A stretch of DNA of 37,196 nt. Source: a phage. The first letter of the stretch is position 1, and the number at the start of each line of letters is the position of its first letter. Shown in pieces: positions 18,884-26,069 of the stretch. The stretch lies in the sequence record PZ445539.1. One strand, given 5' to 3'. The notes beneath the pieces were generated by a model. It was not told the DNA's origin. It did no database searches and saw only the letters and a program-made list of their open reading frames with translations. A program made the translations under genes and the position numbers.

Positions 18884-20269
18884 ATGCTTTATAACACCGG
18901 CACCATCGCTATTAACGGAAATACCGCAACCGGCACCGGCACAAACTGGACGGCACCCGCCAGCCAGGTTCGCGCTGGCCAGACGATTATTGTCATGTCT
19001 AACCCGGTTCAGATGTTCCAGATTTCATCCGTGAACAGCGCCACGTCAATGACGGTAACGCCTGCTGCATCACCGGCGCTGAGCGGCCAGAAGTATGGAA
19101 TTCTTGTGTCGGACAATATTTCGGTCGACGGACTGGCGCAGGCCATGTCTCAGCTCATCAAAGAGTATGACGAGAATATCGGTGCATGGGAGACGTTCGC
19201 TACTACCTCAGCGAACCAGATTATCACTGTAACCATCAACGGTACCTCCGTGAATATTCCGGGTATTGGTGGCCTGGCTCGAAAAGGGGCAAACAGCGAT
19301 ATCACGGAGCTGAAAGGGCTCACTACTGCGCTTTCTATTGCGCAGGGCGGGACCGGGGCAACGAACGCTGCAGACGCTCGCTCAGGTCTAGGATTTACAA
19401 ATGGCGTAGTACCAGTATCTCTTGGCGGCACCGGCGCAACGAATGCTGCCGACGCTCGCTCAAACCTCGTTTTGGGAAGTAGTGCTACCAGGGACGCATA
19501 TAGCTCTTCTGGCAAAATGTTGTCAGAAGGAGATTTTGGGTTAGGCGGGGCGGCGTCAACCAACGGAAATGAGCAGGCATGCGGATTTTACAGAGCAGTT
19601 GCTGGTGCCAGCGGAAACCCATTAAGTAATTCAGGCGTCATACTCAACCACCAGGTCTACGGCGCTAATGCATTCACAAGAATTGCCACTTCCTATGAGC
19701 TACCTGTTCCCAGGATTTTTGTATCAACAAAGGTGAACTCTACCTATTACCCATACTATGAATTTTACACTACAGGTAACACTACTAAGGCCAGCGATGG
19801 GACACTTAAGGCCGCATCACCGGTCGCTCGCATTGTTACATCACAGGAGGAATGTCAGCGCGCGGATATCGACGAACCTGGCTTTATTTGGTGCGGCTGC
19901 GGAACGGCGAACGCCGAGGCCGAAGGAATAACTCTTTCTCGTCTCGAAGCGGGAGTTTACGTGCTGACCGGTTCTGCAGGGCTGGCATCGGAAGGCTGGA
20001 AGTTGCTGCCGCCAATGGACCCAGGTGGAATGGGAGAACTGGGCGTTGTTGAGGCAGAGCAAAACGACAATGGCGAGCTGACAATCCGCCTGTTCAAGAG
20101 CAAATACATGTTGAGCGATGAAGGTGAGATCATCAAAACCAAAGGTGAACTGATGGATGTCCCGGCAAACAGTTGGATCGATGTTCGCCTGGATATGCCA
20201 GAGAGCAGCATTTGGAATCATCGCCAGAAAGAAGCCATGGAACAAGCGGATAATAATTCTGGTTCTTAA
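18884..20269 (+). CDS. side tail fibre protein with tail-fibre repeats
   Basis: 461-aa ORF; tandem GGTGATNAADARS.LG repeats typical of phage tail fibre repeat motif; GAGG ribosome-binding site. Confidence 0.8.
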   Translation: MLYNTGTIAINGNTATGTGTNWTAPASQVRAGQTIIVMSNPVQMFQISSVNSATSMTVTPAASPALSGQKYGILVSDNISVDGLAQAMSQLIKEYDENIGAWETFATTSANQIITVTINGTSVNIPGIGGLARKGANSDITELKGLTTALSIAQGGTGATNAADARSGLGFTNGVVPVSLGGTGATNAADARSNLVLGSSATRDAYSSSGKMLSEGDFGLGGAASTNGNEQACGFYRAVAGASGNPLSNSGVILNHQVYGANAFTRIATSYELPVPRIFVSTKVNSTYYPYYEFYTTGNTTKASDGTLKAASPVARIVTSQEECQRADIDEPGFIWCGCGTANAEAEGITLSRLEAGVYVLTGSAGLASEGWKLLPPMDPGGMGELGVVEAEQNDNGELTIRLFKSKYMLSDEGEIIKTKGELMDVPANSWIDVRLDMPESSIWNHRQKEAMEQADNNSGS

Positions 20270-20278
20270 TTAAACATA

Positions 20279-20308
20279 GGCAGTCACGTAATTAATGACT
20301 GCCTTTTT
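20279..20308 (+). terminator. intrinsic terminator after tail fibre gene
   Basis: GGCAGTCA-cgtaattaa-TGACTGCC hairpin followed by TTTTT. Confidence 0.6.
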
Positions 20309-20309
20309 G

Positions 20310-20576
20310 TCACGCACCAACCTGGCGAACAGTCGGGAACTCAGAAACCAACCACATATCAGATTCTTCAAACATTTCCTCCAGCATACGGTTCAGTTTT
20401 TCCCGATCGCTTTTGCTGGCATCGCTATTCAGGCCGTTTTCCTGCATCGGCTTCACTTTCACCTCGGCATCAGGGAAAATCTGGTGCACTCGCTTCGTCA
20501 GCTCTGCCAGGATAATTTCTCTGGCGCCTGCCAAACCATCAACATTCCGCTTGTCATAAACCAGTTCAACGAACAT
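20310..20576 (-). CDS. DinI-like protein
   Basis: 88-aa acidic protein whose sequence pattern resembles DinI; GGAGG ribosome-binding site; two LexA boxes immediately upstream. Confidence 0.75.
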   Translation of the reverse strand: MFVELVYDKRNVDGLAGAREIILAELTKRVHQIFPDAEVKVKPMQENGLNSDASKSDREKLNRMLEEMFEESDMWLVSEFPTVRQVGA

Positions 20577-20595
20577 ATAAGCCTCCGGAAAACCA

Positions 20596-20635
20596 CTGTG
20601 TTTGTATACAGTATTTTTACTGTAAAAATAAACAG
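20596..20635. promoter_or_regulatory. two tandem LexA (SOS) boxes in the DinI-like promoter
   Basis: CTGT-N8-ACAG at 20596-20611 (aCTGTgtttgtatACAGta) and 20620-20635 (taCTGTaaaaataaACAGta). Confidence 0.7.
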
Positions 20636-20730
20636 TATCAAGGTGAGCGGAGCGCGAAAAGTGGAAGGGTTTTTGTTACCCTTAGTTACAAATAGAAAAA
20701 CCCCGGACCGTAAGATCTGGGGTTCTTTTA

Positions 20731-20757
20731 AAGTGCACGTGCATTTCACGTGCATAT
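20731..20757. promoter_or_regulatory. candidate integrase arm-type binding sites (left arm of attP)
   Basis: Repeated GTGCA(C/T) motif: AAGTGCACGTGCATTTCACGTGCATAT. Confidence 0.35.
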
Positions 20758-20847
20758 TTTTGTCTTTTCTCGGTCTGCGCACTGTCTGGTCAGTGTCCGT
20801 AAGTGGCTGTTTTTATTGCCGCTGTCCGGTTGCAGTCCTATCAAAAG

Positions 20848-20882
20848 TGGTGGAGCTGGCGGGAGTTGAACCCGTGTCCGAA
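20848..20882 (-). mobile_element. ssrA: attP core: 3'-terminal fragment of ssrA (tmRNA) carried by the phage
   Basis: Reverse complement reads GGACACGGGTTCAACTCCCGCCAGCTCCACCA, matching from memory the T-arm/acceptor 3' end of enterobacterial tmRNA; identity stops abruptly upstream; integrase gene adjacent. Confidence 0.7.
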
Positions 20883-20932
20883 TAATGATTAACCTATTGA
20901 ATATTAATGATTTCTGTTTTTTGAAATGCCTC

Positions 20933-20953
20933 AAGTGCATTTTAAGTGCATAT
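20933..20953. promoter_or_regulatory. candidate integrase arm-type binding sites (right arm of attP)
   Basis: AAGTGCATTTTAAGTGCATAT, same motif as at 20731-20757, on the other side of the core. Confidence 0.35.
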
Positions 20954-21006
20954 CGTGGTCCCTCTAACGTCCTGATTCCGTCCAACATTTTGAAATATTC
21001 ACCACG

Positions 21007-22254
21007 CTACTGAACTGCAGAAATGGCGGTTTTTCCGTCGTATTCAGCCAGATATCTACCGTAATTGCGGAACAGCATTTCCGGCCCTTTATGCCCCATC
21101 TGCCCGGCAAGCCAGAAAAGGTTTACGCCTTGGCTAATGTGTCTGGTGGCGAATGTGTGGCGGGTCTGGTACGGGTTACGGTATCGAACGCCAGCTTTTC
21201 TGAGTGTTGGCACCCATGCTTTTTTTCGTATTGCGTCGGCGTTCGCCCAAGGCTCACCCGTTTTAGGATCGCTGAAAATAAACTCACTTTTCATGAACGT
21301 GAATTGTTTCTGCGCCTGCAGCGCGGCCAGCGCCTCGCTGTTTAATTCTACTTTACGGGTACCGGCTTTTGTTTTGGTACCTTTAAGAACGCCAACCACA
21401 CTCGCCGCCTGAACGTGAGCTGTTTTAGCGATATTGTCGAGGTCGGGCCAGCGTAACGCACACAGCTCAGAGCTGCGTAAACCTGTATTGAATGCGAAAC
21501 GGAACAGGTTTTCCCATTCCTGATATCTGCAGCTCTGGTAAATAGCGCTGATTTCCGCTGGTGTGAACGGATCAACTTCGTAATCGTCAATATTCGGGCT
21601 GCTGTCGATCACGTGGTACCGACTCGCGCTGACAAGGGTTACCGGGTTGATTGTCAGCAGGCCGTCAGTCACCGCTTCATCTATGGCGCTGCGCAGAAAC
21701 GAGAGGTTATTCCTGATCGTTTTCAGCTTTGTTTTTCTGCTGGCGATCCAGTTTTTGAGGACCGCAGGGGTCAGTTCCGACACATGCATTTTGTGCAGCG
21801 CAGATAGCGCAGACAGGCACTTTTCATAACCGCCAATAGTGGAGGGCGAAAGGTTGCGGTTCTGGCAGATTTTCAGATACTCGTCCAGGTAGGACTTAAT
21901 ATTTTTGGTTTTCTTCACTACCCCGAACAGCTCCAGTTTTTTGGAGGTGGGGAAGTATTTCGCATAATCGAATGTGCCGCCGGCGATCTGGTTCTGTATC
22001 TCCCCCAGCAGGCGCTCGGCATACTTCACGCCGCGCGCGTTTGCTTCCATTCTGGAAAGGGGCTCCCGGCAGAGAACCCCTTTGTAGGTGAATGTGATCA
22101 CCAGGGTATCGCCAGTTTTATGCTGGCGAATGGTTACTCCTCTTGGGAGAGATAATGATCCTTGTTCTTTCTTGCCCACTTTGAAACCTCCGTTAAGTCT
22201 ATCCAGCGTTCTTTGACGCCATCGACTTTTAATACATGAACACCCTCTTTCCAT
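21007..22254 (-). CDS. int: tyrosine integrase (start codon uncertain, probably downstream of 22254)
   Basis: C-terminal catalytic region with conserved R..H..R..Y pattern (HTFATRHISQG...RNYGRY); adjacent to attP. Confidence 0.9.
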   Translation of the reverse strand: MERGCSCIKSRWRQRTLDRLNGGFKVGKKEQGSLSLPRGVTIRQHKTGDTLVITFTYKGVLCREPLSRMEANARGVKYAERLLGEIQNQIAGGTFDYAKYFPTSKKLELFGVVKKTKNIKSYLDEYLKICQNRNLSPSTIGGYEKCLSALSALHKMHVSELTPAVLKNWIASRKTKLKTIRNNLSFLRSAIDEAVTDGLLTINPVTLVSASRYHVIDSSPNIDDYEVDPFTPAEISAIYQSCRYQEWENLFRFAFNTGLRSSELCALRWPDLDNIAKTAHVQAASVVGVLKGTKTKAGTRKVELNSEALAALQAQKQFTFMKSEFIFSDPKTGEPWANADAIRKKAWVPTLRKAGVRYRNPYQTRHTFATRHISQGVNLFWLAGQMGHKGPEMLFRNYGRYLAEYDGKTAISAVQ

Positions 22255-22340
22255 AACCCCCTTTGTATCCGTTTGTTAACAGCTTCAACCGTTTCTCCGG
22301 CGTCCCGGCAGTAGGTTGAAAGTGGTACGCAATCAAGACT
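22134..22340 (-). CDS. xis: excisionase-like protein
   Basis: About 69 aa from the internal Met (MSLDCVPL...); basic small protein directly upstream of and overlapping int. Confidence 0.55.
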   Translation of the reverse strand, partial: SLDCVPLSTYCRDAGETVEAVNKRIQRGLWKEGVHVLKVDGVKERWIDLTEVSKWARKNKDHYLSQEE

Positions 22341-24283: not shown

Positions 24284-24676
24284 TCATACGAAGCGCCTCA
24301 CCGCCAAAGAAGCGACTACCCGACCGTGAATTTTGATATCTTTCAATTCATCAGTGTTGAGGGTGAATGTTTCGTAATGATGGTTGTCAGAAATAATTTT
24401 CAACGAACCACAAATTAATGGCTCTATTCTCTTAATGAACAGGCATGGGCGGCCGAAAACCTCCATCGTATAAACGTAAATGCCAGGAGTGAGCGCACGG
24501 CCACCGCAATCAACGAACGCCACAACCTCACATGGTTCGATGGTCGGTTGCATTGAATCACCTTCCATCCGGCAGCTCTGAACGCGGTTACCAAAGTCGT
24601 TAATATTGTCTGAACCGAACAGCATTCGAGGAGTTTTTATTGGCTGATTAATCGCGATAGCATTTTGCATTTTCAT
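24284..24676 (-). CDS. stand-alone S24-family peptidase-like protein (LexA/UmuD C-terminal domain type)
   Basis: GDSMQPTI serine motif and downstream FIKRI lysine in correct order; 130 aa with no HTH; GAGGAA ribosome-binding site. Confidence 0.6.
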   Translation of the reverse strand: MKMQNAIAINQPIKTPRMLFGSDNINDFGNRVQSCRMEGDSMQPTIEPCEVVAFVDCGGRALTPGIYVYTMEVFGRPCLFIKRIEPLICGSLKIISDNHHYETFTLNTDELKDIKIHGRVVASLAVRRFV

Positions 24677-24736: not shown

Positions 24737-25168
24737 TTAAATCTTGTCTGCTTGCTTACAGATGGTTTCTTGCAAGTCATCTAATTTTTCATAAACGATA
24801 GTTAGAGTACCGATAGCCGACAATTCAGGAGGCATACAATCCATAGCGTTGGATAAAGCCATTCTGCAATTGCCAATATCCGCAGACCATGAATTAAGTT
24901 GATTGGAAGTTATAATGCTTGTTGGCTCTGTAAATTCACCACACTGCTCGTTTCCTGAAATGAGCCACAGAACATCAGAATGAAGAATGTTAGCCAATTG
25001 GATTAACTGGTCAGCAAACGGAACAGTTTTCTCCGTTTCCCAGTTGTTAATGGTTTCGGTTGTTAAACCAAGATGATCAGCCAAAAAATCCTGAGACAGT
25101 CGAAGCGAAGATCTTTGATTTAATATTCTTTTGCCGATGGTTTTGGCTACGGTGATTTGAGTATTCAT
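24737..25168 (-). CDS. XRE-family helix-turn-helix transcriptional regulator
   Basis: N-terminal HTH pattern (LRLSQDFLADHLGLTTETINNWE); first gene after the OL-like palindrome; GGAG ribosome-binding site. Confidence 0.7.
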   Translation of the reverse strand: MNTQITVAKTIGKRILNQRSSLRLSQDFLADHLGLTTETINNWETEKTVPFADQLIQLANILHSDVLWLISGNEQCGEFTEPTSIITSNQLNSWSADIGNCRMALSNAMDCMPPELSAIGTLTIVYEKLDDLQETICKQADKI

Positions 25169-25370: not shown

Positions 25371-26069
25371 TTAGAGCCTATTGTAATTGATTGATTCATG
25401 CATTATGGCTTTACCCATCACGTAAAGGTCATCTTGGTTTTCTTCCGTGATATACCATTTCTCATATGCCGGATTATCCGATAAGACTGCTAGCCTGTTT
25501 CCCTGCATCTGGAGACGTTTTAGGTGAAATGTTTTACCAAAAACAAACACATACACACCATCCGTTAGAAAGTGTCGGACGGAAATGTCTACGAAGACAC
25601 GATCACCGGAATTAAATGTGCTGGCCATGCTGTCGCCATTGACGGTCATTACTTTTACGACATCTTCACTACGATTCCCGAAAAGGGATTTTGCATGTTG
25701 AGTCGTAAACTCAATAGCGTGTAAAACCTCCACATATTCTGAAAGCATGAACGTGCCAGGCCCTGCACTCACTGCAAGGTCAAGAACCTCGACCCTGAAT
25801 ATGCCAGCGTTATCCTTTACCTCCCTTTCGGGCATGGTCTCTATCACATAGCCCTGTCTATGAGGCACATGATTTTTTCCAGTTGATAGCCATTCAGGGC
25901 TCACACCCAGCGCATTAGCAATCTCAACCAACTTACGTGTTGTGTTGGTTTTGCCTGCAACAAGACGCCAGATAGCTGGTTGCGAAACCCCAACTTTCAT
26001 CGCTAATTCTGCCTGCGTAAGGCCTGCGTCAACCATCGCTTTTTGAAGACGATCTGAGAATGTGTTCAT
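25371..26069 (-). CDS. cI: CI-like repressor (HTH plus S24 autopeptidase domain)
   Basis: Start placed at internal Met (MNTFSDRL...) to clear the operator region; N-terminal HTH; C-terminal S24 domain with GDSM serine and later KRLQ lysine; divergent from cro. Confidence 0.85.
   Translation of the reverse strand: MNTFSDRLQKAMVDAGLTQAELAMKVGVSQPAIWRLVAGKTNTTRKLVEIANALGVSPEWLSTGKNHVPHRQGYVIETMPEREVKDNAGIFRVEVLDLAVSAGPGTFMLSEYVEVLHAIEFTTQHAKSLFGNRSEDVVKVMTVNGDSMASTFNSGDRVFVDISVRHFLTDGVYVFVFGKTFHLKRLQMQGNRLAVLSDNPAYEKWYITEENQDDLYVMGKAIMHESINYNRL

Follow-up and report, generated by a model that had tools for sequence, protein, structure and literature searches.

A dinI-family gene with two predicted LexA operators beside the ssrA-type attachment site of a lambdoid siphophage

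What does a temperate phage do with a small dinI-like gene that stands beside its attachment site, on the strand opposite its tail genes and behind two LexA-box motifs? We addressed this question in a stretch of phage DNA of 37,196 bp (PZ445539.1; the whole stretch is referred to as the window). A sequence-only reading had described the gene as an SOS-regulated DinI-like moron beside attP, with two consensus-quality LexA boxes 24 bp apart overlapping its promoter. It had expected the gene to be expressed during the same SOS response that induces the prophage, and had suggested that the product could modulate RecA activity and thus repressor cleavage.

The dinI gene and its product

The gene occupies 20310..20576 on the minus strand (88 codons and a stop) and lies within a segment, bases 19800-22300, that is 100% identical in reverse orientation to Escherichia phage LMessi (PP925823.1; 37,205 bp; rotten tomato, USA). 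That record describes a lambdoid siphophage with HK97-type head and tail genes, a Q-like antiterminator, CI and Cro-like regulators and an integrase. It contains no dinI and annotates a 196-aa 'hypothetical protein' on the opposite strand (window 20295..20885). Among 71 distinct relatives of equal length, the variable columns were distributed over codon positions 1, 2 and 3 of the dinI frame as 24/16/81, a bias indicating that the dinI frame is truly translated and that the 196-aa open reading frame is spurious; the latter was rejected as an artefact. A Shine-Dalgarno sequence, GGAGG (20582..20586; minus strand), was read directly off the sequence 5 nt 5' of the dinI ATG and is invariant in eight colinear relatives. 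A literature search on LMessi and other phage names returned nothing relevant, and a preprint on radioresistance in EHEC was set aside because its dinI is the chromosomal gene.

The DinI-like character of the product was borne out by its Pfam, PDB, PHROG and Foldseek matches, the best of which were to DinI. The protein aligned to PF06183 over profile positions 2-63 of 63 with 79.4 bits (E=2.5e-22) against a cut-off of 24.2, and matched PHROG 189 'RecA filament binding protein DinI' with E=1.8e-21. Its sole sequence match in the PDB was to the DinI entries 1GHH and 7YWA (E=4e-7), and it has 37% identity to E. coli K-12 DinI over 67 residues. An AlphaFold model displayed a strand-helix-strand-helix order with moderate confidence (pLDDT 64.6; shallow alignment), and the top Foldseek PDB matches of this model were 7YWA_A, which is DinI in the RecA filament, and 1GHH, which is free DinI (TM 0.64-0.71; probability 1.00). 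Beyond the DinI entries, the Foldseek PDB search with this model returned nothing below E=0.28. The protein scored 40.1 bits against NF007893, the NCBIfam equivalog of chromosomal DinI, and thus fell below the cut-off of 111, indicating that it is not an orthologue of chromosomal b1061. By its sequence it is a member of a paralogous MsgA-like clade, for which databases give the names DinI family or 'virulence protein MsgA'.

The cryo-EM paper on E. coli DinI assigns its RecA contacts to a pocket (L13, L21, W71, W77, F78) and an acidic patch (E24, E69, D76). On alignment, E24, E69 and W77 were identical in phage DinI (E25, E67 and W75, respectively), L21, W71 and F78 were conservatively replaced (I22, F69 and L76), D76 corresponded to a Met and L13 was not alignable. 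I22, E25, F69, W75 and L76 of phage DinI are invariant across 25 members of the clade, and the other aligned contact positions nearly so. By analogy with E. coli DinI, proteins of this MsgA-like clade probably bind the RecA filament. A 9-residue C-terminal tail (FPTVRQVGx) is conserved in most clade members, phage DinI included, and has no counterpart in E. coli DinI, phi80 DinL and some other clade members.

Tandem LexA operators and the predicted promoter

Across the 37,196 bp of the window there are just two copies of the motif CTGT-N8-ACAG. One spans 20596-20611 and the other 20620-20635, their starts being 24 bp apart, and they lie 18 and 42 bp upstream of the dinI ATG. By chance ~0.37 copies would be expected in the window, and two or more, counted anywhere in it, turned up in 9 of 100 shuffles. 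The shuffle count disregards the placement of both motifs less than 60 bp upstream of the dinI start. As 20-mers the sites read CACTGTGTTTGTATACAGTA (20594-20613) and TACTGTAAAAATAAACAGTA (20618-20637). All 20-mers of the window were scored with a Lewis-type heterology index (HI) using a matrix from 31 E. coli LexA sites taken from the literature, and nine of them (recA, two at lexA, dinI, umuDC, three at recN, and sulA) were confirmed exactly in MG1655. The proximal operator, TACTGTATACAAACACAGTG on the gene strand (20594..20613), had an HI of 4.75. The distal operator, TACTGTTTATTTTTACAGTA on the gene strand (20618..20637), had an HI of 3.89, which is the best in the window, and both values fall among those of the recA, sulA and host dinI sites. 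The distal operator is also the sole match in the window to the 20-bp LexA consensus, TACTG(TA)5CAGTA, at three or fewer mismatches. Sites with an HI of 8 or less occurred at a mean of 0.02 in 50 shuffled windows. No other LexA site was found in the phage by the whole-window HI scan, the third-best HI being 13.3, inside a tail gene, and matches to CTG-N10-CAG elsewhere in the phage were rejected as LexA sites, being GC-rich coding sequence.

A sigma-70 promoter was predicted by consensus scan on the minus strand, consisting of TTGATA (20641-20636), a 17-bp spacer and AAAAAT (20618-20613). It is the only sigma-70-like promoter predicted in 20150-21050, and its -10 is weak. From the position of this promoter it follows that the distal box fills the -35/-10 spacer, while the proximal box extends from the last base of the -10 over the expected transcription start. 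The earlier claim that the boxes overlap the dinI promoter therefore holds on the predicted promoter, and the placement of the operators over the spacer and the start site is classic repression geometry. Phage dinI is probably under LexA control in vivo, as judged from the operators and their position.

Comparison with relatives pointed in the same direction, and the two consensus-quality boxes of the sequence-only reading were conserved as well as high-scoring. Among 67 IMG/VR dinI relatives with upstream sequence, 61 carried a LexA box (HI of 10 or less) within 150 bp upstream, and two boxes were present in nine. The boxes of the relatives sit in promoters of at least four or five unrelated architectures, indicating that the operator was kept while the surrounding promoter was replaced. 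In eight colinear double-box loci, 34 of 40 operator positions were invariant, compared to 34 of 51 positions that belong neither to the boxes nor to the -35 hexamer or the ribosome-binding site. The operator changes in these eight loci fell in the central AT-rich part or on the outermost bases, and the CTGT/ACAG arms were intact in all ten double-box promoters compared. The -35 of the relatives is the consensus TTGACA. Tandem LexA boxes also occur in K-12, 21 bp apart at lexA and 22 bp apart at recN; K-12 dinI has a single box. The gene is very common, with at least 596 confirmed hits in IMG/VR, 28 cultured-phage records and 1,490 protein clusters.

The attachment site and the transcription unit

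The location of the gene beside attP was confirmed. The attP core is the 3'-terminal ~38 nt of ssrA (tmRNA), recognised as an Rfam tmRNA 3' end at 20848..20885 on the minus strand, 272 bp upstream of dinI. The window and the prophage form in one relative (L052) are near-identical from the dinI start to the core and unrelated beyond it: past the core, the prophage form runs into the host ssrA body and the window runs toward int. In the related prophages L052, L061, L077 and L079, ARAGORN identified a complete tmRNA gene that is co-oriented with dinI and ends 271 bp upstream of it, and the order in CP-1639 is smpB-ssrA-dinI-tail fibre. These arrangements indicate that in the lysogen dinI is the first prophage gene after ssrA. 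The predicted prophage contigs of 13 of 80 IMG/VR relatives, which start exactly at the dinI start, fit this position. The ssrA 3' end lies at -296 in all eight double-box IMG/VR loci and in the window. A 621-bp query from dinI to ssrA found at least a partial match in 1,423 of 5,426 complete E. coli genomes, with the whole dinI-ssrA module present in 21 of the 1,423.

Two copies of a 29-nt direct repeat (repeat family D2; plus strand), a candidate arm-type integrase site, flank the attP core, with 79% identity and 196 bp apart. The left copy, GTGCATTTnAnGTGCA, lies at 20736..20764; the right copy (20932..20960) is on the integrase side of the core. The tyrosine integrase (21007..22254; minus strand) is directed toward attP, matches Pfam Arm-DNA-bind_2 and Phage_integrase and is named 'integrase' in PP925823.1. 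In the interval between the core and the dinI promoter, a hairpin followed by a U-tract was found at 20690..20727 on the minus strand (-16.6 kcal/mol; z -3.7), and its stem is retained despite base changes in L052 and CP-1639. This hairpin is likely a terminator that would insulate the dinI promoter, acting on ssrA transcription in the lysogen and on transcripts from int in the phage form. Weak Rfam matches to BSnc120, ClpQY_promoter and permuted tmRNA were far under the gathering scores and were rejected as reflecting hairpins only.

On its other side, dinI is followed by a bidirectional hairpin terminator (20278..20304) with a 10-bp stem, which starts 5 nt past the dinI stop and is common to dinI and the convergent tail-fibre gene (18884..20269). 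The minus-strand form of this hairpin folds with -17.1 kcal/mol (z -6.2) and the plus-strand form with -14.2 kcal/mol (z -4.2). The combination of a terminator right after the stop and a convergent neighbour indicates that dinI is monocistronic and that no antirepressor ORF can follow it. With its own predicted promoter and terminator, on the strand opposite the tail genes and between the tail-fibre gene and attP, phage dinI fits the usual description of a moron, in agreement with the earlier label. GC content over dinI was ~0.45-0.47 vs 0.51-0.57 in the tail-fibre gene and ~0.49-0.54 in int, which is a modest gap. [quoted passage not shown]

The CI repressor (25371..26069; minus strand) combines an HTH domain with a Peptidase_S24 domain (Pfam HTH_3; Peptidase_S24, E=2.2e-16). 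Its N-terminal domain resembles that of the 434 repressor, and its sequence shows the Ala-Gly site, the GDSM serine and the LKRL lysine. Because of the S24 domain, prophage induction is expected to proceed through RecA*-stimulated CI autocleavage, which should place it under the same RecA* signal as the derepression of dinI. The expectation that the gene is expressed in the SOS response that induces the prophage is supported on this ground.

Known systems and the role of phage DinI

The arrangement of LexA boxes and dinI is already annotated in phi80, phiKO2 and CP-1639, and the window is a further example of a described design. A dinI preceded by a LexA box and opposite to tail-fibre genes is widespread in temperate phages (PMC7556043). 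CP-1639 (AJ304858) displays the same succession of an ssrA 3' end, a hairpin, a TTGATA promoter with two LexA boxes, dinI and a convergent tail-fibre region, with promoter/arm DNA ~85% identical to the window; however, its dinI is an MRIE-type allele with 31% identity to that of the window, and its boxes are spaced 27 bp apart instead of 24. The dinL gene of phi80 (PHI80_27) encodes a protein ~94% identical over residues 1-79 and likewise follows the tail-fibre genes, on the strand opposite to theirs, at the attP side and with a predicted LexA site upstream. It differs in being a 79-aa form without the tail, in having one annotated operator and in not being adjacent to an ssrA-type attP, as pin and pseudogenes intervene. 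Gp22 of Klebsiella phage phiKO2 is DinI-like and convergent with a tail gene, with a common bidirectional terminator and an annotated LexA site and promoter, but is 58% identical, and its gene lies in a linear plasmid prophage, where it shares a single operator with a divergent UmuD-like gene. The gene is regulated by host LexA according to the passage of a later paper that cites the original work (PMC7556043).

The dinI genes of the Salmonella prophages Gifsy-1, -2 and -3, together with MsgA, belong to the same clade (Gifsy-2 is ~84% identical over residues 1-63) and have a LexA box just upstream. In Gifsy, the gene lies near the replication genes and is the first of an operon with an antirepressor and irsA, controlled by the LexA box beside the dinI homologue (PMC3121763), whereas phage dinI is monocistronic, has two operators and stands next to attP, with the tail-fibre gene on its other side. 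Gifsy DinI accumulates after mitomycin C and replacement of the box region abolishes SOS control, and in the only published genetic test found, non-polar dinI deletions in Gifsy-1 and Gifsy-3 left induction unchanged (PMC3121763). These deletions are no test of the idea that phage DinI acts on CI cleavage, because the Gifsy repressors are not cleaved. Nalidixic acid induced the Gifsy dinI genes 4.6- to 23-fold, with HI values of 3.9-5.3, and Salmonella msgA itself was weakly SOS-induced (PMC8072944). E. coli K-12 DinI (b1061; 1GHH, 7YWA) shares with phage DinI the Pfam family, the fold, a size of ~80 aa, the C-terminal acidic/aromatic helix and a LexA-repressed promoter; the phage protein differs in its 37% identity, the replacement of D76 by Met, the 9-aa tail, two operators instead of the single one in K-12, and in being phage-borne. 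Tum of phage 186 is also LexA-controlled and its C-terminal half is DinI-like (PMC3121763), but Tum has 146 aa with an N-terminal antirepressor, whereas the window protein lacks such a part and its phage has a cleavable repressor.

We propose, with a probability of about 0.75, that the gene is a monocistronic LexA-repressed moron of a lambdoid, ssrA-integrating siphophage, and that its DinI-family product tunes CI autocleavage and/or limits SOS mutagenesis. When DNA damage is absent, two LexA dimers would block the promoter, one bound over the -35/-10 spacer and the other over the transcription start, and dinI would be off in the lysogen despite the co-oriented ssrA just upstream, with the hairpin terminator in between. 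On formation of RecA* filaments, LexA would be cleaved and dinI derepressed, yielding the 88-aa DinI of the MsgA-like clade; two strong operators would delay this expression until LexA is well depleted. Steps past derepression are inferred throughout. [quoted passage not shown] It would stabilise the filament and compete with slower groove-binding substrates, namely UmuD and CI-type repressors. The likely result would be a tuned threshold or timing of S24-type CI autocleavage, and/or limited SOS mutagenesis in the lysogen. Several observations weigh against the proposal, namely the NF007893 score below its cut-off, the low identity to E. coli DinI with a Met at D76 and an extra C-terminal tail, the weak -10 of the predicted promoter, the moderate confidence of the AlphaFold model and the unchanged induction of the Gifsy dinI deletions. 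The earlier suggestion of an action on RecA, and through it on repressor cleavage, is a reasonable analogy in view of the biochemistry of E. coli DinI and the structures of RecA-DinI and RecA-lambda CI, and an effect of phage DinI on CI cleavage is plausible on the same analogy.

A more specific version, which is speculative and which we consider rather unlikely in its entirety, would make phage DinI an SOS-timed brake. The two operators would hold expression off until LexA is deeply depleted, after which occupancy of the groove would slow autocleavage of the 434-like S24 CI, so that a brief SOS response would spare the prophage and sustained damage would induce it. The strict linkage of both the double operator and a terminator to the ssrA arm would then be an adaptation for silence beside ssrA.

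Other explanations were weighed against the proposal of a LexA-repressed moron that acts on CI autocleavage or SOS mutagenesis. That the two LexA motifs are chance matches without a regulatory role is scarcely credible: window-sized shuffles did contain two or more copies in 9 of 100 cases, located anywhere, but in the phage both lie less than 60 bp upstream of the dinI start and overlap the sole predicted promoter, both have an HI below 5 when shuffles held a mean of 0.02 sites at 8 or less, and they are conserved in relatives while the flanks vary. A chance origin was therefore refuted on statistical and comparative grounds. It is also highly unlikely that the tandem operators mainly serve the attP/ssrA module, as a roadblock or insulator that stops transcription arriving from ssrA or int, or as a structural element in site-specific recombination, with control of dinI secondary. 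In favour of this reading, the ssrA 3' end accompanies the double-operator promoter without exception, at -296 in 8/8 IMG/VR loci and in the window and at a similar distance in CP-1639; the promoter travels with the ssrA arm in CP-1639 while the dinI allele differs, and single-box promoters are found elsewhere. A simpler cause of this linkage, however, is common descent of one ~300-bp module (85-95% identical), a separate hairpin terminator already stands between ssrA and the promoter, and the operators are ~210-290 bp from the core in their repression geometry.

A LexA-controlled antirepressor switch, of the 186 Tum or Gifsy dinI-gfoA/gftA type, would induce the prophage without repressor cleavage, and this is a very remote prospect here. 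In its favour, 186, PSP3, Fels-2 and the Gifsy prophages have dinI homologues in physical linkage with antirepressors (PMC3121763), and the PHROG 189 profile has 151 positions of which phage DinI matches only 71-150. The ORF, however, is 88 aa long with no N-terminal extension, the terminator 5 nt past the stop and the convergent tail-fibre gene preclude a co-transcribed partner ORF, CI has a complete S24 autocleavage domain, and the sole LexA boxes precede dinI with no second LexA-controlled locus in the phage. With no room for such a partner beside dinI and an S24 domain in CI, an antirepressor partner of the Tum/Gifsy type was rejected as largely refuted by anatomy. A role in lysogenic conversion, in which an SOS-induced extra DinI/MsgA-type protein would aid lysogen survival under DNA damage or in hosts, with no meaningful effect on the induction switch of the phage itself, is a genuine possibility, if a less probable one. 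It draws on the name 'virulence protein MsgA' given to close relatives, on the share of complete E. coli genomes at least partly matched by the dinI-ssrA query (1,423/5,426), on the unaltered induction of the Gifsy dinI deletions (PMC3121763) and on the weak SOS induction of Salmonella msgA (PMC8072944). Inducible phages whose repressors can be cleaved nevertheless carry dinI time and again next to their tail and attP modules, which fits a phage-directed role equally well, and the host-benefit and phage-directed roles are not exclusive.

The practical gain from this locus is small and includes a corrected public annotation, since the LMessi record omits dinI and lists a spurious ORF on the antisense strand. 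Besides this gap in the record, a second point of minor interest is that the promoter with its tandem operators moves together with the ssrA attachment arm. The only LexA sites of the phage are predicted to control an accessory gene, the lytic switch not being among their targets, which calls for caution with tools that label prophages 'SOS-dependent' from LexA boxes alone. Phage-borne dinI is very common, including about a quarter of complete E. coli genomes by at least a partial dinI-ssrA match, and because its dinI is monocistronic, its repressor cleavable and its host culturable, LMessi would be a clean system in which to study phage DinI and the induction threshold.

Relation to the LMessi record and its annotation at dinI

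The window (37,196 bp) is reverse-complemented and circularly permuted relative to the Escherichia phage LMessi record PP925823.1 (37,205 bp), with record positions up to 33736 converted as window position = 33737 minus record position. The dinI gene is absent from the GenBank annotation of PP925823.1. Two hypothetical proteins, CDS0032 (196 aa; window 20295..20885 (+)) and CDS0031 (42 aa; window 20885..21013 (+)), were annotated antisense to dinI, the dinI promoter and the attP core. The 196-aa ORF CDS0032 was rejected as spurious because variability among relatives followed the dinI frame, with 24/16/81 variable columns at codon positions 1/2/3.

Sequence features around the attP core

The ssrA-derived core is flanked by two copies of a 29-nt direct repeat (20736-20764 and 20932-20960), which are 196 bp apart, have 79% identity and both contain GTGCATTTnAnGTGCA. 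They are candidates for the arm-type sites bound by integrase. At its ssrA 3' end (20848-20885 (-)) the phage carries GGACACGGG in place of the GGACGCGGG of K-12 and lysogen forms, which leaves the outer T-stem pair as an A.C mismatch. This points to strand exchange on the 3' side of the mismatched base, so that the host G would be retained in lysogens.

A hairpin with a U-tract (20690-20727 (-); -16.6 kcal/mol) is located between the attP core and the dinI promoter, on the opposite side of attP from int, the equivalent position to that occupied by sib/tI in lambda. In lysogens this hairpin lies immediately 3' of ssrA. The stem is maintained despite base changes in a related prophage form (L052) and in prophage CP-1639.

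A possible second, split CI-type repressor

In addition to the full-length CI (25371..26069 (-)), a pair of genes (24284..24676 (-) and 24737..25168 (-)) comprises a DicA/RstR-like HTH gene (143 aa) and then a gene encoding an S24 peptidase domain alone (130 aa; PHROG 6201, 'CI-like repressor'). Together these look like a CI-type repressor divided over two genes.

Junctions at the dinI promoter in related elements

Prophage CP-1639 (AJ304858) resembles this phage in the ssrA arm and double-operator promoter (2487-2800 compared to window 20577-20885; ~85% identity), but not in the dinI coding sequence, with only 31% identity at the protein level. The mosaic joint is located at the ribosome-binding site. 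Five IMG/VR dinI relatives have a single upstream LexA box, the left half of which was swapped for unrelated sequence, and start ..GGGAAGACCCAT[GA]CATATACAGTAG.., so a recombination or attachment junction would lie within their LexA operator. LexA control should be lost at these dinI copies.
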